Origin: an uncultured Methanoregulaceae archaeon
GTDB taxonomy: Archaea; Halobacteriota; Methanomicrobia; Methanomicrobiales; Methanospirillaceae
NCBI GenBank assembly: GCA_963737635.1
Contig: CAVTTL010000001.1
Span: forward strand, 320,001 to 384,000
Reading direction: 5' to 3'
Length of the DNA: 64,000 nucleotides
Shown here: in pieces, positions 1 to 14,392 of the stretch
Layout: each line of letters opens with the position of its first letter
How positions within the stretch are numbered: the stretch's first letter is position 1
Notes under the pieces: model-generated
What the model was told of the DNA's origin: nothing
The model's input: only the letters and a program-made list of their open reading frames with translations
Database searches by the model: none
Translations under genes and position numbers: made by a program

Positions 1-121
1 CTGGAGGAATCGCCGGGCATAGCTCTGATCGCCGCCGGCGGGCTTCTCGTCCGGCGCTGGTGGATCCGCAGGCAGAATCCGGCCCTGTTCCGGAAATACG
101 ATTAACCCCTTTTTTATCCGG
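1..121 (+). repeat. Gene-tail repeat copy 1: 3' end of a membrane-anchored protein gene (..[29 protein letters not shown], stop 103-105) plus T-run and ATCCGG; gene may continue upstream of the window
   Basis: Direct translation of frame +1; near-identical to 1001-1113 and 2173-2284. Confidence 0.9.
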
Positions 122-426
122 ATCCCCTCGCTGGGCAGATCTCTGTCTGATCGGGCACAATTATATCAGGATTGCTCATTTGGAACATGGTTTGTCAGAC
201 TATAGTCAACAAGAAGGAAGGAAGTGTCGTATTATGCTCCGATAAAGAAGCAAAGAAACTCTCGGGATCGACATCGAAACGCTTCACGGGATACATCCAT
301 TTCGCCGGTATCTCTACCCGGTTGCGATTTTTCATTCCCAAGCGGGTGTGTGTGAGATAAAATGATTACAACAAAGATTATCTTTTCATGGTTCGAACAG
401 GTACGATAATCCATGGGGGGAAGACC

Positions 427-627
427 ATGCAGCTGAAAGTTGTGATCACCAAAGGCGAAGATGGCTGGTATGTTGTAACAGTCCCCGCACTTCCCGGTTG
501 TATTTCACAGGGACGGACAATCAGGGAGGCAAAACAGAATATCAGAGAAGCGGTCTCCCTGTACCTTGAACCAGATGAGGATATCATCACGGAAAAAGGT
601 GCACGGGTCATCGAGGTTGCGGTGTGA
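427..627 (+). CDS. hicB: HicB-family antitoxin (short, no DNA-binding domain)
   Basis: EDGWYVVTVPALPGCISQGRTIREAKQNIREAVSLYLE is the typical HicB pattern; stop overlaps the hicA start (GTGA). Confidence 0.9.
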   Translation: MQLKVVITKGEDGWYVVTVPALPGCISQGRTIREAKQNIREAVSLYLEPDEDIITEKGARVIEVAV

Positions 628-855
628 AGCATCTCCCGGTACTATCCGGCAGCGATGCAATCCGGGTATTAACCCGGGCGGGATTCTCATTCGTACGCCA
701 GAGAGGAAAGTCATGTCCGGATGAAAAAGCAGCAACCGGACACTACCTTTAATGTTACTATCCCTCTGCATGATGAACTTGACCGTACAACACTCCGTAC
801 AATCATCAAAGCGGCGGGACTTTCTGAAGATGAGTTCCTGAAACTTCTGGAATGA
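624..855 (+). CDS. hicA: HicA-family mRNA interferase toxin, one-base frameshift at ~707
   Basis: Manual translation [68 protein letters not shown]; extra A in GGAAAGTCAT breaks the GSH motif; absent from ORF track. Confidence 0.85.
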
Positions 856-1000
856 CACCTTTCTTTTGCTCCTGTCCTTGTCAGAGGCTTCCCTTGTCCC
901 CGGGCCCAAACGTCTTTCAAAGACCGAAGCGTCTTCTGCTCCGGCAAAACCGGTTCCGGCGGACGGCAGTGGGCCTTCCCCGATTATTATCGTGGCTGGG

Positions 1001-1113
1001 ATCGCCGGGATCGTGCTGATGGTCTCCGGCGGACTGCTCATCCGGCGCTGGTGGATCCGCCGGCAGAACCCGGCCCTGTTCCGGAAATACGATTAACTCT
1101 TTTTTTAATCCGG
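1001..1113 (+). repeat. Gene-tail repeat copy 2 (orphan C-terminus: Pro/Ala/Ser linker, TM helix, [17 protein letters not shown], stop 1094-1096)
   Basis: ORF 866..1096 ends in the same peptide; begins just after the hicA stop so no room for a full-length gene. Confidence 0.9.
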
Positions 1114-1246
1114 CTTTGCCGGCTTCTCGCGGAAATATCCTCAATGAAAGCCGGTGCCGGCATATACCCTTATCAAGGGTATCTGATAGGAGAAACCTGA
1201 TGTGCAGAAACGTCCAAGAAAGATCAGGAATATTGGGGAATCCATC

Positions 1247-1436
1247 CTGAAAGTCCGTGAGATTATTAAAATGATAGAGAACGACGGATGGTTCCTTGTC
1301 GCAACAAAGGGGAGTCATCGCCAGTACAAGCACCCAGAGAAATCCGGCAGGATCACTATTGCCCGGCCATCCGTCTGAAGATCTTGCGCCCGGCACAATG
1401 AACAGTATCGTAAAACAGGCACATATAAAGGATTGA
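1247..1436 (+). CDS. hicA: HicA-family toxin (second module), one-base frameshift at ~1362; start uncertain (CTG 1247 or GTG 1202)
   Basis: Manual translation KVREIIKMIENDGWFLVATKGSHRQYKHPEKSGRITIA/GHPSEDLAPGTMNSIVKQAHIKD. Confidence 0.85.
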
Positions 1437-1441
1437 GTACC

Positions 1442-1660
1442 ATGCACCGGTTCCTTATCGTGATTGAAAAAGCGGAAAAGAATTACTCGGCATATTCACC
1501 GGACCTTCCCGGATGCGTCGCAACGGGAAAGACCCGGGAAGAGACTGAAGAGCGGATGCACGAGGCAATCGAGATGCATATCCGGGGAATGATCGAAGAC
1601 CGGATACCAGTCCCGAAGTCTCATTCATCCGCGACATTTGTCGCAGTCCAGGCTGACTGA
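1442..1660 (+). CDS. hicB: HicB-family antitoxin (second module)
   Basis: YSAYSPDLPGCVATGKTREETEERMHEAIEMHI motif, directly downstream of hicA. Confidence 0.9.
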   Translation: MHRFLIVIEKAEKNYSAYSPDLPGCVATGKTREETEERMHEAIEMHIRGMIEDRIPVPKSHSSATFVAVQAD

Positions 1661-1786
1661 CAGCGGCCAGGCCACTTTTGCAAAGACCGGATTTTCCGGG
1701 CAAAACGATGTCGGCATCACAGATGGTGAATGGTACTAAACTCTCTTAATACCGGAACCAGATATCTGTATACAATCCGAACAGGT

Positions 1787-1861
1787 ATGGATTTCAAAAT
1801 TGCGACCGAAAAAGATAAGGATGGCTGGTATATTGTTACCGTACCGGCATTACCGGACTGA
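1787..1861 (+). pseudogene. Truncated hicB (N-terminal 24 codons)
   Basis: MDFKIATEKDKDGWYIVTVPALPD*, closely similar to the first HicB (DGWYVVTVPALPG). Confidence 0.75.
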
Positions 1862-2046
1862 TTTTATGTCAGGGTAAAAACAGTCTTACGGTGGAATATG
1901 CCTTGAGGGACATGAAGAAGCCGATCGGTGTCATCGAATGGCAGACAAAACTGATAGAATCGCTTCCAAAAAGGCCCCGAGGAAGCTTGCCGACCGTGGA
2001 AGACTTGGAGGCTGAGTTCGCGAAAGGCGGAAAAAAGACGTCATAA
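1855..2046 (+). pseudogene. C-terminal remnant of a DUF1016/YhcG PD-(D/E)xK nuclease-like gene
   Basis: Frame +1 reads GLILCQGKNSLTVEYALRDMKKPIGVIEWQTKLIESLP..GSLPTVEDLEAEF, matching the DUF1016 C-terminal pattern; N-terminus missing. Confidence 0.75.
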
Positions 2047-2172
2047 ATTGTCAGCTCGTGTATTTGTCCCACAAGCTGTGGGACAATTTACGGTCACGAA
2101 GCCGCCGGTCTGGTTTTCCCAGCCATACCGGCAACGAGCATCGGGTCTTCGCTTCTCCTTGCCGGCATCGGC

Positions 2173-2284
2173 ATTGCCGGGATTGTGCTGATTGTCGCCG
2201 GTGGGCTTCTCGTCCGGCGCTGGTGGATCCGCAGACAGAACCCGGCCCTGTTCCGGAAATACGATTAACCTTTTTTTAATCCGG
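2173..2284 (+). repeat. Gene-tail repeat copy 3 (orphan: ..[35 protein letters not shown], stop 2266-2268)
   Basis: Frame +1 translation; in-frame stop at 2044-2046 and no ATG between it and the tail. Confidence 0.9.
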
Positions 2285-2500
2285 GCTACGGATCGGGCAC
2301 TGAGTAATGCCCGGCGGTATCGGGTGGAACCAGTGTGCGGCAACGTCAAAAAAAGAACCCGTTATGATACCTAGTAATATATCAAGTATAAGGAAAATGA
2401 GAGGATGCGTTTTTTTCAAGTGTCGACAGTACAAGCAATTTACGCCAAATATCCTGCACGGTACAAAATAATATCATGAGTAAGGGAGAATGAAGATCAA

Positions 2501-2770
2501 ATGGACGGAGTTAACGTAAAATGGCTGAACGATATCCTCATGGGTATCACGTTCTTAATCTGTTTTATTACCGGACTTTTGAAATACAGCGTTCTTTTGC
2601 AGGTGACCGGGTTAAACAACGTCATCCTTCCCGGCGCATTGATCTCCGATCTCCATGACTGGTCCGGCATTGTTCTTGGGATCTTTGTCTTCCTCCACCT
2701 GTTCCTGAACCGCCGGTGGATTATTTCCACGACTCACAAAATAGTTACCGGGACCGGCCCGGAACCCTGA
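2501..2770 (+). CDS. DUF4405-like small membrane protein
   Basis: Two hydrophobic segments, DLHDWSG..LHLFLN motif. Confidence 0.65.
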   Translation: MDGVNVKWLNDILMGITFLICFITGLLKYSVLLQVTGLNNVILPGALISDLHDWSGIVLGIFVFLHLFLNRRWIISTTHKIVTGTGPEP

Positions 2771-2814: not shown

Positions 2815-3504
2815 CTAGAAGAAACTCTGGTTCAGGTTCCCGGAGAGCGAATACCCTCGTTGTTCCCAGTAGCCCTGGTAGGTAGGATTGTCGGTAAGTT
2901 CTATTTTGTCGATCCATTTGATCCACTTGTACCCCCACTTGTCCTCTGCCACCAGCTGGAACGGATACCCGCGTTCTGCGGGAAGGGTGACGTTATTTAT
3001 CCGGTATGCCATGATAATGTCCTGCTGGGTGAAGTAGCTGAGAGGAAATGAGGTAGTATACCCATCGGTGGCGGTGAACACCACCGTATTTGCCCGGGGA
3101 TCGACACCTGCATCATTAAGGATATCCCGTACAAGCACGCCCTGCCACAGGACAGTTGCGTCCCAGCCTTCCACGCAGTGGAGGGTCACCACTTTGGAAT
3201 AATCCGGGAACTGTGTAAGAATCTGGCCATAGGAATACGTGACCGTACGTTTGGTCAGTCCAGTCACCGTCAACTGGTAGGTGGAAGTATTGACATGCTG
3301 GACGCCATTTATTGCATTCTCCCGGAAATCGTTGATGGACGAGAGATCCTGTCCCTGGTAGGAACGTACTTCAACCGGGGAAAGCGGGGTAGCACCTCCG
3401 GTATTTTGTCCTATTCCGTAAAGAGGGCCGATAAAAATCACGGCTACAATAACGATCGCTGCAACGGCGGCGAGCACACCGGCGAGCATGACCCGGGGAT
3501 TCAT
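2815..3504 (-). CDS. Membrane-anchored molybdopterin-dependent oxidoreductase (sulfite oxidase/MsrP-like domain)
   Basis: LHCVEGW, ERGYPFQLV..KWGYKWIKWI, GYWEQRGY motifs; N-terminal TM helix. Confidence 0.85.
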   Translation of the reverse strand: MNPRVMLAGVLAAVAAIVIVAVIFIGPLYGIGQNTGGATPLSPVEVRSYQGQDLSSINDFRENAINGVQHVNTSTYQLTVTGLTKRTVTYSYGQILTQFPDYSKVVTLHCVEGWDATVLWQGVLVRDILNDAGVDPRANTVVFTATDGYTTSFPLSYFTQQDIIMAYRINNVTLPAERGYPFQLVAEDKWGYKWIKWIDKIELTDNPTYQGYWEQRGYSLSGNLNQSFF

Positions 3505-4343: not shown

Positions 4344-4903
4344 TTCGTCGTGAAGAGATGGTACTTGACGTCTTTATCCTGAAGCTCTTCGAGGATCCGG
4401 GCCTGAATCATCTTTTCCGGATGGGGGATCGACTTGATCCGGGCCGAAATATCAGCAAAGTTCTCAAACGGCTTCCGGTTCCGGGCTTCCAGCACCTCCC
4501 ACATCAATTTCTTGCCGATACCGGGCAGCAGGTGCAACATGTGAAGCTTGGGGGTGATGGAAATTGCCTTGTTAAAGAAGGTGACAAAATCCTGTTCCCG
4601 GTCTGTCACGACCTGTTCGATCATGAACGGCAGCTCCCCCCGGGCAGTCTGCGTCAGCTCGTCATAACTGATCCGGCGTTTTACGCGTTCGATTTTGTCA
4701 CGCGAGGAGTCCCCGATATAGACTTTATCGTGGAGGTTGATTACCACCCCAGGTTTGGGGATCAATTCGAGGAGCTTGAACTGCTCAAGACCCATTGCCT
4801 GAACAACAGGTTCGCGTTTAAACTGCGGCCGGGGATCCTCGGCATGCCCTTTCATGAGCACATCCAGTACGATCGCGTTGACCTCTTTTTTCTCGGCCTT
4901 CAT
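4340..4903 (-). CDS. DUF655 family RNA-binding protein
   Basis: HhH LPGIGKK motif; usual position between rpo4 and rsmA. Confidence 0.85.
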   Translation of the reverse strand: MKAEKKEVNAIVLDVLMKGHAEDPRPQFKREPVVQAMGLEQFKLLELIPKPGVVINLHDKVYIGDSSRDKIERVKRRISYDELTQTARGELPFMIEQVVTDREQDFVTFFNKAISITPKLHMLHLLPGIGKKLMWEVLEARNRKPFENFADISARIKSIPHPEKMIQARILEELQDKDVKYHLFTTK

Positions 4904-4913
4904 GATCTGCACC

Positions 4914-5265
4914 TCAGAAGTGTGCCATGACCAGGTCGATAATGGAATCAATCTCTTCGGGCGAAAGCGTAAATCGCTCTTTTGCGAAGATTGCCCGCAC
5001 TTCGTCCCTGCTTTTAGGCATGATATTTGCTATACGGTAGGCAATCTCCGGCTTCATTTTCTCCAGCTTGAGGAGCTTATCCACGAGATCTTTGGATTTT
5101 TCAGGCGTGGTCTTGGCAAGATGGTTGGCATGGTCCATACTGCGCCTGAACTCGTAGGACAACTCCTTCTCGGCAGCGATCCTCTCTGATTCCACTCCCA
5201 TAAGAGCTGACGCGGAGTTCGGGGAGAGTAACCTTCTCTTCGCTAAGAATACCCTTCACTTTCAT
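4914..5265 (-). CDS. rpo4: RNA polymerase subunit Rpo4 (F); frameshift near 5205
   Basis: ELSYEFRRSMDHA..IANIMPKSRDEVRAIF; N-terminus MKVKGILSEEKVTLPELR lies in another frame from ATG 5265. Confidence 0.88.
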
Positions 5266-5286
5266 GCCAATCACCTGACAATGAGT

Positions 5287-5577
5287 TTACTTTTGTGCTT
5301 TTAGATGTTGCGGTCTTGCAATGACCGTTTTTTCCGCATTACCGTCGTTAATGGTGAGCATCCATGCCCGGCCGCGTTTGCCGATTACCGTGCCCGTGAG
5401 GCCGTGGAACCGGCGGTGCGGCATCCCTTTCTGGATGCTCGAATTCACAACAATGTGTACTTTCGCGCCGATCTCGAACTGCTGGATGACGGAGGTAACC
5501 GGCGGCAGCCCGCGCTGTCTCAATTCTTTCTTGAACTTATACCGTGTTTTCTTTCTTGGTCCGTTGTGATGTGCCAT
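5287..5577 (-). CDS. rpl21e: 50S ribosomal protein L21e
   Basis: KGMPHRRFHGLTGTV, RPQHLK motifs. Confidence 0.97.
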   Translation of the reverse strand: MAHHNGPRKKTRYKFKKELRQRGLPPVTSVIQQFEIGAKVHIVVNSSIQKGMPHRRFHGLTGTVIGKRGRAWMLTINDGNAEKTVIARPQHLKAQK

Positions 5578-5579
5578 TG

Positions 5580-6813
5580 TTAATCTCCCTCCTTTGGTCC
5601 TTCAACATGCACGACATCAAGACTGGTGACGTGCGCCGATCGCTGCAGGATCTCGGCAAGACTCGGGGTGGTCCTTCCCTGATCGCCTGATATGAGTTCC
5701 TTGATATAGAGGCCGGCTTCGCCGAGGACTTCGAGAATAAACTGTCCATCCTGTTCCCCTATGCACTCGATATCGAGGACTTTACGCTCCCGGACTTTAT
5801 CTGCTCTCCGGTGGGCGACCCGTTCGGGCGTGCGCTGGTGTATTGTGACGCCCTTTAAGGTATTCAGGGCATTTACCAGCACTTCTGCCGGTAATTGCCC
5901 TTCGACCTCGACCAGGATCCTGTATTTTTTATGCGCTTTACTTGATTTAAGGGTTTCCACATCAGAACGGTCGGTCCAGTGTGAAAGGGAAACCGCGACC
6001 CTTCCTTCGGCAGTTCGGTTGATCTCCGATTCGAGTGCGCCAAGGGAAACCGACCGCTTTTTCGGGGCGACGATCTCGAGGATGAATGGACGGCCGGTGC
6101 CGATCATCCGTGCATCGATATCTTCCCTGCCCGGCTCCGTGCAGGACAGCATTTCCAGCATCGAATGCCTCAATTGCAGGCCTGCCAATCAGTTCTTCCA
6201 CCGAATCCATGTACTGCTTGCCCGTATAGTTACACTTCTCGCAACCGGCTCCCTTGCAGGACCGGCAGTTCCAATGGGTCTGGGGGATACCGCGTTCGAA
6301 CTTCTGGTATCTTCCGTAGAAAAAGAGGGAATTCACCTGGATTTCAACAGTACCGCCTGCCGGATCGATCAGGGCAACGACGTCGGGTTTTTTGAATTCC
6401 ACCACCTTTCCCGTAATTGCCGAGACCGCTTTTCCCACCTCCCGGTTCACTTCGGACTTAAATGGCTCGGGATCCCCAAGGGAGAGGTCGCTCCAGACCA
6501 TCTCCTCGTTCTCTGCAATAAGCGGGGGCACCCGACAGCCGACGAGGAACGTCGAGTACTCGTAGCCTTCCAGCGCACAAACAACCTTATCCGCCCATCC
6601 GGACACATCGTCAAAGAAGTTTCCGCAGATCCAGCATGTGCCGGAGAAGTGATCGTATGGCTGGTTTGCAGCCAAAGCCCGTGCTATCCGGAGCCCTTTT
6701 CCCCGCTCGTCATTGCCAAGGCCATGTGACCGTTTACCGAAAAACCGGCCCAGGCAATGATCGCAACAGTCGCCATACGCCAGAATTTTTTCCACTTGTT
6801 CGTTCATTTCCAT
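5580..6813 (-). CDS. pus10: tRNA pseudouridine(54/55) synthase Pus10; frameshift near 6130
   Basis: GRYQKFERGIPQTHW and HGAG/REDIDARM catalytic motif split over ORFs 5962..6813 and 5580..6188; GLYIKELISGD. Confidence 0.92.
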
Positions 6814-10612: not shown

Positions 10613-12968
10613 ATGACAGAAAATCTCAGCCCAAAAGACCAGATGCGGGTCGCCATCGTCGATGACATGCACACAACCGACACCCCACAGGGCAGAGCCA
10701 TCTCCCGGATCATGGACGGACTTCGGCAGTTTGGGATCGAAGTCACCGATGTTGCCTCGCCTGATGATGCACGGGCGGCCTATTCGACCCTCGCTGCAAT
10801 AGACTGCATCCTTATCAACTGGAATATCGGGGGGAGTTCCCCCAGACGCCACGCTGATACTCAGCGTCTGATATGGCAGATACGTGAGATCAACGAGCAG
10901 ATCCCAATCTTCCTTATGGGAGAACCGACCAATGCGGCCCCAGTTGATCTCGATATGGAGATGGTCAAAGAGATCAACGAATACATCTGGGTGATGGAGG
11001 ACACCCCTGAGTTCATCGCGGGCAGGATCAGTGCCGCGGCCCGTCGGTACCGTGAACACCTTCTCCCACCGTTTTTCGGGGAGCTGGTACGATTCTCTAA
11101 AGATTTCGAATATTCCTGGCATACCCCCGGCCATGCGGGAGGCATTGCGTTCCTGAAATCACCCGCAGGACGGGCTTTTCATACCTTCTTTGGGGAGCAG
11201 CTCTTCCGGTCGGATCTTTCGATCTCAGTCGGAGAGCTGGGATCGCTGCTCGACCACTCCGGGCCGGTAGGAGCGGCGGAGCGGTACGCGGCCAAGGTCT
11301 TTGGTGCAGACCAAACCTATTTTGTGACAAATGGTACTTCAACAGCAAATAAGATCGTCTTTTTTGGGAGGGTGACAAAAGACGATATCGTCATTGTCGA
11401 TAGGAACTGCCATAAATCAAGCGAACATGCGCTCACCATGACCCATTCGGTGGCAGTCTACCTGATGCCGACCCGGAACCGGTACGGGATCATCGGCCCC
11501 ATTCCGCCTTCAGAGATGACACCCTCGGCGATCAAGAAAAAGACAGCCGCCTGCCCGCTTACCAAGGGATTAGCAGAAGCCAAACCCGTGCATGTGATCA
11601 TCACCAACTCCACCTACGACGGTCTCTGCTACCACGCGGCCGATGTCGAGGCACTGCTCGGGAAAAGCGTGGACAGTATTCACTTTGACGAAGCGTGGTA
11701 TGGCTATGCACGGTTCAACCCGCTCTACCGGGACCGGTTCGCGATGCGGGACGGCTCAAAGGATGAAAAAGGTCCGACCGTATTTGCCACCCAGTCCACC
11801 CACAAGCTGCTCGCAGCCCTCTCCCAAGCATCGATGGTTCATGTAAGGAACGGGCGTGTCCCCATCGAGCATGCCCGGTTTAACGAGGGTTTCATGATGC
11901 ATAGTTCCACCTCCCCGCTCTATACGATCATTGCATCACTTGACGTCTCCTCAAAGATGATGGAGGGCGCTTCCGGGAAGAGTACTGACAAACGAGTCCA
12001 TCGATGAGGCAATCCGGTTCCGGCGCATGATGGCCCGGATCCGGCACGAGATTGAGGGCCGTAAAAAAGGCAAGAGCGGTACACCTCATGACTGGTGGTT
12101 TGGGATGTGGCAGCCGGAGACGGTCACCGATCCGAAAACAAAAAAGAAGATCCCCTTCCAGGACGCACCAATCGATGTGCTCCGGAACGAGCCGTCAGCA
12201 TGGGTGCTCCACCCGGGGGATACCTGGCACGGCTTTTCCGGTTTCCCTGACAACTACTGCATGCTCGACCCCATCAAGGTAACCGTGCTGATGCCCGGTG
12301 TCAATGATGACGGATCGCTTGCCGACTGGGGCATCCCGGCGGCACTTGTCGTGAAATTCCTCGACACCCGCGGCATTATAAACGAGAAGTCCGGGGACTA
12401 TTCCATCCTGTTTTTATTCTCTATGGGCATCACCAAAGGAAAATGGGGGACACTTATAACCGAACTCTTCGAGTTCAAGCGGCACTATACAGAAAATACC
12501 CCGCTCGAAGAGATTTTCCCTGACCTTACAACTGCATGCCCCGGCCGGTACGCAGGCATGAAACTTCAGGATCTCGTCAAAGAGATGCATGAATTCAAGA
12601 AGGAGCACCGGATGTGCGAGCTCCTCGGCGAAGCTTTTGCGATCCTGCCGGAACCGGTGCGGACCTATGCGGACGCCTATGCGAGACTGGTGAAAAATGA
12701 GGTCGAATACCTGCCGGTGGAAAAAGCGGGTGACCGTATCCTGGCGACCGGTATCGTCCCCTATCCCCCGGGGATTCCCCTGCTTGCACCGGGGGAGAAG
12801 ACCGGGAAACTCTCGGGGCCGATCCTTCAGTACCTTAAAGCTCTTCAGGATTTCGACAATGCATTCCCGGGATTCTCGCACGATATTCACGGAATCGAGA
12901 TGGTAAACGGGAAGTACATGATGTACTGCCTTAAAGAGACCGGCAGGAAAAAGGTGAAACGATCGTGA
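10613..12968 (+). CDS. Orn/Lys/Arg decarboxylase (PLP, fold type I, with N-terminal wing domain); frameshift near 11980
   Basis: WHTPGHAGG, FVTNGTS, DRNCHKS, HFDEAW, QSTHKLL (PLP Lys), HSSTSP; LDPIKVT and VPYPPGIP in the second ORF. Confidence 0.92.
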
Positions 12969-14392
12969 GCGAAGAAAACAAGAAAACGGCTCCCCTGCAA
13001 AGGAAAAAGATCCTTGGTGTCTTTGCCCTTGCGATGATAAACGTTGCCGCAGTCTTAAGCATCAGGAATTTCCCGTCAATGGCGGAGTACGGCTGGTCAA
13101 GCATAGGGTGGTACATCATCGGGACAATCCTCTTTTTGATCCCGATCTCGCTTGCCGGTGCTGAACTTGCTACCGGCTGGCCGGAAGGCGGAGGTATTTA
13201 TGCATGGGTTAAGCGGGCGTTTGGCGATACCGGGGGATTTATGGCGATCTTCTGCGAATGGTCCAACAACCTTGTCTGGTTCCCGACGGTACTAGCGTTT
13301 ATTGCGTCGACGCTGGCGTTCGCACTCACTCCGACACTTGCAAACAACCCCCACTATATGTTTATCGTCATGATGGCCGCGTTCTGGGGAACGACCCTGA
13401 TTGCCCTGTCAGACCCGGAGCTCACCAACAAATTTTCCAATGTCGGTGTTATTCTGGGAAGTATTATCCCGGCAGTCCTGATCATTGCGCTTGGTGTGAT
13501 CTGGATCGCAGGAGGATCAAAGACTGTGCTGCCACCGTTTTCTTTTGGAGCAATGCTCCCTACGATCACCTTCTCAACCCTGCCCTTCTTTGCTACCATC
13601 GTCCTGCTCTTCTCGGGAATGGAGATGGCAGGATTTCATGCCCTTGAGACAAAAAATCCCCAGAAAGACTACCCACGAGCCATGGCATTTTCTGCCATCA
13701 TTATCTTTGTCTGCACGGTACTTGCCACGCTCGCGATCGCTTTTGTGATCCCGGCAAACCAGTTGAATCTTGCATCGGGAGTTATGCAGGCAATCCAGTA
13801 CTTCTTCGTCTCGTTTGGTCTTTCCGCCTTGGTAGCACCCATGGCCCTCCTGATCACCATCGGTGGTGTCGTTCTTCTGGCGGCATGGCTTATCGGGCCG
13901 GCGAAAGGTCTTGGTGTGGTTGCAGAGGATGGGAATATGCCCCCTCTGTTTGACCGGACCAACAAGCACGGCTCACCGGTGGCAATCCTCATCATCCAGG
14001 CCATCATCGGCTCGATTATTTCCCTTCTCTACGTCTTTCTTCCTTCGGTTAATGCTGCATACTGGCTCCTGTCTGCTATCACGACCGAGCTTTTGGCCAT
14101 CGTATACCTGTTCGTCTTTGCAGCGCTCATCAAGCTGCGGTACAACCAGCCGGACACGCCACGGCCGTTCAAGATCCCCGGGGGGATGATTGGCGTCTGG
14201 ATCGTGGGAGGCCTTGGAGCATTCGGCGTCATCTTCACCTTTATCGTAGGACTAATTCCCCCGTCGTTCTTTGCAAATGGACCAGCCTATGTCGCAGCCG
14301 TACTCATAGGTACCTTTATTCTTGCCGTCCCACCACTGATCTTCTTAAAATATAAGAAAACCTCATGGAAAGCCACACCTCCTGGGAACTAA
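12965..14392 (+). CDS. APC-family amino acid permease (GadC-like antiporter)
   Basis: About 12 TM helices; AELATGWPEGGGIYAWVKRAFG, PRPFKIPGG; start overlaps decarboxylase stop. Confidence 0.88.
   Translation: MSEENKKTAPLQRKKILGVFALAMINVAAVLSIRNFPSMAEYGWSSIGWYIIGTILFLIPISLAGAELATGWPEGGGIYAWVKRAFGDTGGFMAIFCEWSNNLVWFPTVLAFIASTLAFALTPTLANNPHYMFIVMMAAFWGTTLIALSDPELTNKFSNVGVILGSIIPAVLIIALGVIWIAGGSKTVLPPFSFGAMLPTITFSTLPFFATIVLLFSGMEMAGFHALETKNPQKDYPRAMAFSAIIIFVCTVLATLAIAFVIPANQLNLASGVMQAIQYFFVSFGLSALVAPMALLITIGGVVLLAAWLIGPAKGLGVVAEDGNMPPLFDRTNKHGSPVAILIIQAIIGSIISLLYVFLPSVNAAYWLLSAITTELLAIVYLFVFAALIKLRYNQPDTPRPFKIPGGMIGVWIVGGLGAFGVIFTFIVGLIPPSFFANGPAYVAAVLIGTFILAVPPLIFLKYKKTSWKATPPGN

Follow-up and report, generated by a model that had tools for sequence, protein, structure and literature searches.

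How does the end of a surface-protein gene come to be repeated, always in the same orientation, between toxin-antitoxin (TA) operons? This question is raised by the left end of a 64,000-nt stretch of DNA (the window) from an uncultured Methanoregulaceae archaeon (GenBank assembly GCA_963737635.1, contig CAVTTL010000001.1, positions 320,001 to 384,000), where a giant surface-protein gene is followed by two further copies of its own 3' end (hereafter the tail), with a different TA cargo ahead of each. The explanation that we consider best, with about even confidence, is an integrase-free duplication and displacement of tails driven by homology, as in the orphan arrays of Rhs and contact-dependent inhibition (CDI) systems, with TA operons as cargo. 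The case consists of three arrays, two of them in the same genome and the third in another species, and we treat it as a lead rather than as a system.

The source genome (G000) measures 2.46 Mb, and the window corresponds to G000:C1:320001–384000. Other G-numbers denote genomes of relatives and L-numbers denote loci around matches; L001 is the window array with its upstream DNA, L002 a second array and L003 a second large tail-bearing gene, all three in G000. Position 12015 of L001 is window position 15, and 13362 is window position 1362.

Repeated gene tails separate toxin-antitoxin operons

A repeat search of the window returned one family, with three direct copies of 118 nt (7–124, 998–1115 and 2170–2287) that are 77–86% identical to the reference copy. 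In blastn against the whole 2.46-Mb genome, the window copies matched one another at 86–90% over 116–117 nt (E 1e-32 to 1e-38), with copy 3 at 88–90% over 116 nt to copies 1 and 2. Each copy consists of the end of a transmembrane (TM) helix, [17 protein letters not shown], a stop codon, a T-run and ATCCGG, and the 17-codon motif differs among them only by AGG/CGG/AGA and AAT/AAC, all synonymous. The preliminary description of this DNA, made from its letters alone, had reported three such direct copies with synonymous differences in the motif, the T-run and ATCCGG behind each, and two words identical in all three, and these observations are borne out. The T-run after the stop resembles an oligo-T terminator and is predicted to act as one.

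Copy 1 closes the giant gene. The stop-to-stop frames around copies 2 and 3 comprise only 84 and 73 codons, and copy 3 has no in-frame start; both are true orphans, as had been supposed. Homology of copy 2 to the gene end extends 5' to window position 944 (944–1113, 171 nt at 80%), and we read a probable 5' limit of copy 3 at ~2098 from a G-x-x-FP linker like that in the tails of relatives. The two TA pairs between the tails are both of HicAB type, with adjacent HicA (PF07927) and HicB (PF15919) genes; HicB scored 42.4 and 44.7 bits, HicA of the second pair 44.3 bits, and the two halves of HicA in the first pair 17.6 and 25.9 bits against a cut-off of 27. The features of the array and its right flank are as follows (window coordinates, strand, identity, and basis in brackets).

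1–105, forward strand: tail copy 1, the last 35 codons of the 2151-amino-acid surface-protein gene (open reading frame, motif, contigs)
106–121, forward strand: T-run and ATCCGG after the stop, common to the three window copies (sequence reading)
388–627, forward strand: first hicB antitoxin gene, intact, 79 amino acids (Pfam HicB_lk_antitox, E 9e-11)
624–855, forward strand: first hicA toxin gene, split into 624–752 and 721–855 by a 1-nt frameshift (Pfam HicA halves in two frames)
944–1115, forward strand: tail copy 2, orphan, with the ~53 terminal codons of a related surface-protein gene, stop, T-run and ATCCGG (blast, length of the open reading frame)
1095–1170, forward strand: 76-nt post-tail module, recurring at 93% identity at G000:C1:1197350–1197425 (blastn, alignment)
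1202–1436, forward strand: second hicA toxin gene (Pfam HicA over 1202–1378, E 2e-11)
1433–1660, forward strand: second hicB antitoxin gene, intact, 75 amino acids (Pfam HicB_lk_antitox, E 2e-11)
1730–1861, forward strand: remnant of a third hicB, 43 codons (nucleotide matches of 74–84% to hicB-type sequence, in G000 and elsewhere)
1891–2046, forward strand: C-terminal remnant of a gene for a YhcG-type PDDEXK nuclease, 51 codons (Pfam YhcG_C, model positions 124–157 of 157, E 6e-4)
2098–2287, forward strand: tail copy 3, orphan, a linker-like stretch, TM helix, motif, stop, T-run and ATCCGG (blast, frame)
2288–2460, no strand: non-coding right end of an island of ~11.0 kb (synteny and junction alignments)
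2501–2770, forward strand: DUF4405 gene, conserved flank (Pfam)
2815–3504, reverse strand: molybdopterin oxidoreductase gene, conserved flank (Pfam)

The cargoes are thus those described earlier, hicB-hicA followed by hicA-hicB with hicB and yhcG remnants. The hicB remnant gave no Pfam match and is called from nucleotide similarity, and the YhcG_C match lies below the curated cut-off. A perfect 10-nt inverted repeat with a 3-nt loop stands at 2064–2086, between the YhcG remnant and orphan tail 3.

We compared the assembly over L001 10500–15000 with contigs, not reads, of four public runs from four studies, of which the best-matching run may be the source sample of the window; contigs drop rare variants, so that rare excised or rearranged forms are invisible to this comparison. 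Because a single base at L001 12015 and another at 13362 are missing from the contigs of all four runs, the apparent frameshifts at these two places are assembly errors, both at CCGGG-type words within the 4.5 kb compared. Without the second of these bases (window 1362) the second HicA lengthens from 58 to 77 amino acids. The frameshift in the first hicA is real, because contigs of runs X1 and X2 reproduce it with 0 gaps, and this gene is a genuine pseudogene. An extra base in the L003 tail (~5900), the split L003 gene (1286–5948) and a split fwdC (L002 5406–6076) possibly reflect the same type of error, and the 90% completeness of the genome may be lowered by 1-base indels of this kind; the split genes outside the window array (the L003 tail and gene body, a ParE-like toxin, fwdC) are not safely callable as pseudogenes without reads.

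Contigs of the four runs span from the interior of one tail through the entire cargo into the next tail, at L001 12040–13096 and 13068–14232 with 0 other letters, and reproduce the unit interiors with 0 to a few differences. The units are therefore real and identical across several studies. The preliminary description had itself allowed for a misassembly of dispersed paralogue ends. Such a false join has almost no credibility in our estimate: the proven 1-base indels show that the assembly contains errors, and short-read contigs break at each tail copy, as they do at repeats, so that the order of the units is not confirmable from them, but the cargo units themselves are reproduced by all four runs, each copy carries private differences, and the flanks are syntenic with those of relatives.

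The repeat is the conserved anchor-coding end of surface-protein genes

As assembled, an open reading frame (ORF) of 2198 amino acids (L001 5649..12245) enters copy 1 out of frame. With the erroneous base at L001 12015 removed, the gene encodes 2151 amino acids, begins at G000:C1:313649 upstream of the window and closes in the motif, as expected from the earlier suggestion of an intact gene upstream. Its product contains a beta-propeller, seven PKD domains (Pfam PKD_4 x7) and a PGF-pre-PGF domain (TIGR04213), the last scoring 60.7 bits here and 63–64 bits in three other genes. The motif follows this domain, in the place expected for a PGF-CTERM signal. No Pfam or NCBIfam model reached its cut-off on the tail and the PGF-CTERM signal (TIGR04126) was not found there, while PGF_CTERM matches occur at three other loci of G000, which also has an archaeosortase-like gene. 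A paper on PGF-CTERM in Methanoregula covers, in the part of its text available to us, PGF-CTERM S-layer proteins and not this tail.

Tail matches were found in 19/24 same-genus genomes in a first draw and in 73/107 other same-genus genomes in a wider draw (up to 8 scored matches per genome), and at the loci of relatives the ORFs closed by the tail are long, from 222 to over 2100 amino acids, and have unrelated bodies. A degenerate pattern for [10 protein letters not shown] matched at least 121 stretches in contigs of one genome per species, in records titled Methanoregula, Methanoculleus and other Methanomicrobiales. Among 79 exact-motif sites in 80 species-genome loci, 71 close an in-frame ORF of at least 150 amino acids, one is cut by a contig end and seven do not close such a frame; several of these seven are frameshifted genes (L123, a PKD gene, and L110, L095 and L105), and one is a true orphan tail behind serA, without TA genes (L121, genome G012). 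At window 1–105 and at tail loci L005–L139 a near-invariant C-terminal motif, [14 protein letters not shown][KE]YD, follows a TM helix.

We conclude that the tail is a C-terminal anchor, conserved but unannotated, of surface proteins of this methanogen order, in agreement with the earlier proposal that the repeat is the 3' end of a paralogous family. Because of this conservation at the protein level, it is also the one stretch of DNA common to otherwise diverged paralogues. In the 71 gene-closing sites some codons are more fixed than the background (Arg2 CGC in 52/71 against 14%, Pro10 CCG in 67/71 against 55%), and others vary freely.

A dead tail was duplicated together with one operon

Six tail copies were found in G000 by blastn. 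Two of them close large paralogues, namely the window's gene and that of L003 (C1:~1904286–1908948). The other four are orphans divided between two arrays, with copies 2 and 3 in the window and two at L002 (C1:1654391–1654482 and C1:1655264–1655348). At L002 the order is a hicB-like ORF, hicA, tail, MNT, HepT, tail. The first tail retains the natural stop and T-run and leads into MNT-HepT, the second begins 3 nt past the HepT stop, and the two enclose exactly one MNT-HepT operon. They are 75/78 identical, with the same start word and 5' edge and with a common 2-nt indel that breaks the TM frame. From this shared indel and edge it follows that an already non-coding tail was duplicated along with one TA operon.

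Every orphan is truncated at its 5' end and starts 3–90 nt past the stop of a TA gene or gene remnant, while every left-hand copy has the natural stop and T-run. The repeat lengths among units are 67, ~88, 171 and ~190 nt. It could be proposed that orphan tails are kept for a function, as terminators or insulators of TA operons or as silent spare anchor ends. The stop and T-run on each copy, the undamaged motif of the window orphans and the array being unchanged in contigs from four studies would suit such a role, but decay is seen in orphans at other loci (changes R>C and L>S in the second L002 orphan, W>G in the motif of the G085 orphan), copy 3 lacks a start codon, and the tails are so nearly alike that a swap would change little. 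We consider a retained function very improbable.

Both arrays lie in islands. In genomes G066, G076 and G004 a methyltransferase gene is followed by the DUF4405 and molybdopterin-oxidoreductase genes within ~100 nt, so that the orthologues of both window flank genes adjoin it. In G000 (methyltransferase gene 310839–311396) the same site holds ~11.0 kb of extra DNA, C1:~311437–322460, with a Tfx-type regulator, a 334-amino-acid ORF without family, the giant gene and the whole array. At the L002 site, a conserved 132-amino-acid gene and fwdC stand ~75 nt apart in G066 and are adjacent also in G004 and G076; G000 has 2.6 kb extra there, ending 25 nt past the second tail. Because these three relatives have no surface-protein gene at the L002 site, its tail pieces came with foreign DNA and are not the leftovers of a resident gene. 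Each island ends with a tail copy, 25 nt (L002) and ~173 nt (window) from its right border. Neither shows flanking target repeats in junction alignments or a deviant GC content; the islands and cargo have values of 0.47–0.52 against 0.516 for the genome, a comparison that is uninformative.

The pattern of orphan tails bracketing different TA cargoes, first noticed in the window, thus recurs at L002, and with another TA family it recurs in a relative, G085. There the tail of a 781-amino-acid gene is followed by a DUF4258/DUF2283 pair, an orphan tail and a 685-amino-acid tail-ending gene; the orphan is 62/67 identical to the tail of the 781-amino-acid gene. In G020 a degenerate orphan tail stands 250 nt behind the tail of a gene, with no recognisable cargo. 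The other close tail pairs are tandem full-length paralogues (877 + 987 amino acids in L053, 757 + 932 in L054 and 1066 + 1065 in L055).

In G000 itself, 3/7 hicA loci lie inside the two arrays, and the four HepT loci include one in an array, one 1.2 kb behind the L003 tail and one at C1:1197823. The L003 tail is followed by three TA or TA-like pairs with no further tails: small ORFs without a Pfam match that are ParE-like by eye, an MNT-HepT pair, and a weak DUF7557/VapB-antitoxin-like ORF (E 9e-4, 8e-3) with a weak ParE-like ORF, all of the third pair below cut-offs. A sister locus at C1:1196900–1198110 has a Tfx paralogue and an 87% copy of the left intergenic region of the window island, which is joined directly to the 76-nt post-tail module and MNT-HepT with no gene or tail between; the surface-protein gene and its tail appear to have been deleted here. 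A third Tfx paralogue adjoins hicBA at C1:1897996–1898977, near a third PGF-pre-PGF gene with a different anchor.

These loci bear on a simpler origin, decay in place, in which tandem paralogous surface genes with TA pairs between them would have lost their bodies and kept the last 90–190 nt, the TA pairs marking how far deletions were tolerated. In relatives, full-length paralogues with tails often stand in tandem, as noted above, cargo 2 contains the debris of two further genes, which shows that deletions occur here, and C1:1197200–1197425 looks like an island of the same type from which the whole gene and tail were deleted. The perfect motif of the window orphans, with synonymous differences only, indicates divergence while functional, and the orphan behind serA in G012 has no TA genes at all. 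Against this, the common 5' edge and frame-breaking indel of the L002 tails are not expected from two independent deletions, the L002 array stands where three relatives have no surface-protein gene, and the remnants are all short (67–190 nt), with no longer 3' fragments seen in G000. We therefore hold decay in place to be possible, though clearly on the unlikely side.

Recombination between paralogues and the search for dedicated machinery

The window's gene and the L003 gene, 1.59 Mb apart, are 60–80% identical over most of their alignment. Within a tract of 1.0–1.1 kb (L001 ~10850–11970, L003 ~4660–5780) they are 100% identical to ~11870 and then 97–99%: nine consecutive 100-column windows stand at 100% and the next two at 99% and 97%. 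The tract stops just before the tail, and identity falls again within the tail itself. The variant letters found in contigs at L001 11942–12002 are those of the L003 copy. Such a tract shows a recent gene conversion or ectopic recombination between the paralogues, and the 3' regions of these genes therefore do recombine in this lineage.

A search of the whole genome with PF00589 returned two tyrosine recombinases (C1:273900 and C1:1459787), neither in an island and the nearer 46 kb away, and no integrase was found on the array contigs of five other genomes. The preliminary description had noted no integrase or transposase in view; for tyrosine recombinases this now holds over 46 kb, and transposases were not searched for as such. 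An attC-like structure was also considered. DNA folding of both strands of the three window copies, and of two L002 copies, gave z-scores of -1.50 to +0.73 over eight strands against 200 shuffles each, and we rejected this candidate. An Rfam scan of L001 and of L201, a locus of a sister species, returned no family.

Toxin-antitoxin operons in relatives

To relate TA genes to tails in other genomes, we scanned ORFs of at least 50 amino acids within 1.6 kb downstream of 32 relatives' tails. The scan took in 334 of 378 ORFs, leaving out 12 + 6 ORFs running off an edge and 26 ORFs of L002 that were already annotated; loci L005, L009 and L012 were omitted as duplicates of L034, L033 and L047. The two positive tails were L022, with MNT-HepT, and L049, with a DUF7557 gene and a ParE-like ORF below the Pfam cut-off. 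At 2/32, a general enrichment of TA genes behind tails in relatives was rejected.

Relatives of the window cargoes occur in several genomes of the genus. The hicBA operon of cargo 1 has 89% nucleotide relatives in G057 (L182, contig C44) and G019 (L183, contig C1), and the homology spans the operon and about 30–40 nt on either side. The oxidoreductase flank protein is 52–78% identical across the genus (78% in G066), and G057 and G019 have no match to it there. The 89% DNA identity of the operon, above the 52–78% identity of the flank protein, points to a recent interspecies transfer. In L183 a 51-nt promoter-like repeat occurs three times around the hicBA operon. The hicAB pair of cargo 2 has 76–84% nucleotide relatives in other same-genus genomes among the matches listed, and 46/107 other genomes match some part of cargo 2. 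TA operons thus move between species independently, and their link with tails is occasional.

In sister species, the cargo-2 hicAB homologues stand in arrays built on another repeat, a conserved, co-oriented intergenic sequence of ~135–170 nt that is absent from G000, with spacings of 399–5256 nt.

L201 (G099:C13), copies at ~1111, 4400, 6366, 7077, 11375, 11785, 13363 and 15529: ~135–170-nt repeat, 8 copies in 16 kb
L202 (G122:C4), copies at ~308, 4813, 8748 and 9449: ~135–170-nt repeat, 4 copies in 18 kb

In both species the hicAB homologues lie exactly between two copies of this repeat, 700 nt apart. The L201 array begins ~40 nt past the RRWW tail of a surface-protein gene and holds MNT-HepT, a second HepT, hicAB, a split carboxylesterase, a PLD nuclease and an NHL protein. 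The repeat gave no Rfam match and almost no covariation, and no integrase was found on the same contigs. A repeat of ~95 nt with terminal inverted ends, like a miniature inverted-repeat transposable element, occurs in the same arrays (L201 11533–11627 and 11682–11776; L202 180–256, 8260–8336 and 8443–8519).

These observations allow us to weigh a site-specific cassette system, integron-like or att-like, in which a recombinase encoded at another locus would act on the tail core and TA cassettes with a mimic of the tail would be mobilised in trans. The topology of the array with its TA cargo is what such a system would give, both G000 islands end with a tail copy, some motif codons (Arg2, Pro10) are more fixed than codon usage predicts, and true-looking cassette arrays on the different ~135–170-nt repeat flank hicAB and MNT-HepT in other species. 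However, there is no tyrosine recombinase within 46 kb or on the array contigs of five other genomes (the search did not extend to serine recombinases, transposases or other enzymes), the tail folds no better than shuffled controls, repeat lengths and 5' edges vary between units, and the empty sites of relatives have no tail-like target. Methanoregula, Methanomicrobia and Halobacteriota are unmentioned in the main text of a paper on archaeal integrons (PMC9668308), whose supplementary tables could list them. We regard a site-specific system as improbable.

A proposed homology-driven route to the array

Duplication and displacement of tails by homology would account for the array as a series of recombination scars at the sole well-conserved nucleotide stretch of fast-diversifying surface-protein genes, which encodes the membrane anchor and cytoplasmic tail. 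DNA carrying a tail copy and the DNA downstream of it, often a TA operon, would join a resident tail by ordinary homologous recombination. A small circle entering through a single crossover would be the likeliest route, and the same product could arise if a break were repaired with another tail-flanked unit as template. That product would comprise the gene, a complete tail with its natural 3' untranslated region, the new cargo, a 5'-truncated tail and the old downstream DNA, and repetition would stack units of cargo and tail behind the gene. Recombination of one tail with another could in turn release circles of cargo and tail able to enter any other tail, and a dedicated recombinase would not be needed. 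TA pairs may serve as cargo because they are seated behind such genes, are easily moved between species and are hard to delete; they may stabilise the array or hitch-hike on it, as had been proposed.

The observed anatomy, with a complete left copy, cargo, a truncated right copy and old DNA, is that of a single-crossover product with a circle, and equally that of a tail break repaired from a tail-flanked unit. The variable repeat length, from 67 to ~190 nt, is expected of an exchange that is limited by homology and not by a site.

Several results weigh against this explanation. The window tails differ from one another by 6–10%, within the motif only synonymously, which fits three different functional parents and also a simple decay of neighbouring paralogues. 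No circle, excision joint or differing unit number was seen in the contigs of the four runs, and exact-word scans of a metagenome collection with words to the right of tail 3 and to the left of tail 1 returned 0 matches each. A TA or TA-like pair follows only 2/32 relatives' tails within 1.6 kb, and orphans are rare outside G000, at no more than 7/79 sites, several of which are frameshifted genes. No degenerate tail was found after the TA pairs at L003, L022, L049 and L201 at a score of 34 or more (best null score 24, 30 shuffles). The nearest hicBA relatives, in G057 and G019, lie on contigs without a tail among the matches listed, and TA pairs therefore also move without tails. The model does not account for the entry of both islands into non-homologous sites, and no target duplication was seen at the island junctions.

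The earlier observation is thus confirmed and its interpretation partly supported. The idea that the gene end acts as a recombination handle gains from the recurrence of the pattern, from the lack of a nearby integrase and from the tract shared by the paralogues, and lacks any gain or loss of units or any circle in the contigs; the expected enrichment of TA or defence genes beside tails elsewhere did not appear, at 2/32 relatives' tails and with the nearest hicBA relatives away from tails. A stronger form of the same idea makes the anchor-coding tail a portable recombination site, with circles of one TA operon and a 90–170-nt tail moving without an integrase between genes and species. We consider this stronger form doubtful.

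Comparison with known systems

The closest likeness is to the orphan arrays of rhs and cdiA. There, as far as the text of Jackson et al. 2009 (PMC2935791) available to us goes, stranded 3' fragments lie behind a large surface or secreted gene of their own family, and small gene pairs separate them. The model for rhs loci invokes homologous recombination through circular intermediates, without a dedicated recombinase, in which old C-termini are pushed downstream and accumulate as displaced ends. In the window, likewise, a full-length gene of 2151 amino acids is accompanied by 5'-truncated fragments of its own 3' region (171 and ~190 nt). In rhs and cdiA, however, a variable toxic tip lies downstream of the homology and has the small gene as its immunity gene, whereas here the conserved piece is the extreme C-terminal anchor, the orphans contain only linker, TM helix and motif, the cargo is free-standing type II TA operons (HicAB, MNT-HepT, DUF4258/DUF2283) and the host is a methanogenic archaeon. 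The content that defines Rhs and CDI loci, variable toxin tips with cognate immunity genes, was not found in the orphans.

The likeness to integrons that had been suggested did not survive the tests above. In integrons and clusters of attC sites lacking integron-integrases (CALINs), according to the main text of the archaeal integron paper (PMC9668308), co-oriented small cassettes are separated by a repeat of ~60–140 nt, and TA genes, to which a stabilising effect on arrays is ascribed, account for 10.5% of the archaeal cassette proteins with an annotation. Co-oriented cassettes with a recurring repeat are present here too, as 3 + 2 tail copies with TA operons between them, but the repeat is the coding sequence of the neighbouring gene, its length varies from 67 to ~190 nt, it forms no attC-like hairpin and no IntI is nearby. 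Of the defining features tested, neither the adjacent integrase nor the attC hairpin was found.

Two further comparisons concern islands. Integrative elements that insert at the 3' ends of tRNA or protein genes carry a replacement end, and duplication of their att site can give tandem islands. As in the arrays described here, direct repeats of the target 3' end flank the insert, tandem arrays form and the gene stays intact; here, in contrast, there is no integrase, the units measure 0.9–1.2 kb and hold TA genes only, and the duplicated length varies. Replacement-type flexible genomic islands carry a giant surface protein, are strain-specific or species-specific, lie between housekeeping genes and have no mobility genes. 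From this concept one would not expect the last 100 nt of a gene to be stacked in several copies with TA pairs between them.

Implications for toxin-antitoxin movement in methanogens

No description of the motif, or of methanogen TA pairs bracketed by copies of a gene tail, was found in the portions of the literature that our search covered. The movement of chromosomal TA operons without mobility genes is poorly explained, and a conserved gene end would offer them a simple, enzyme-free route. If the stronger form of the idea, with the tail as a portable recombination site, is true, methanogens would have an integrase-free, homology-based cassette system that also reshuffles the ends of surface proteins, in parallel to the sister-species arrays built on the different conserved repeat. 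Such arrays would bring the displacement logic of Rhs and CDI loci into archaea and apply it to a membrane-anchor sequence and to TA cargo.

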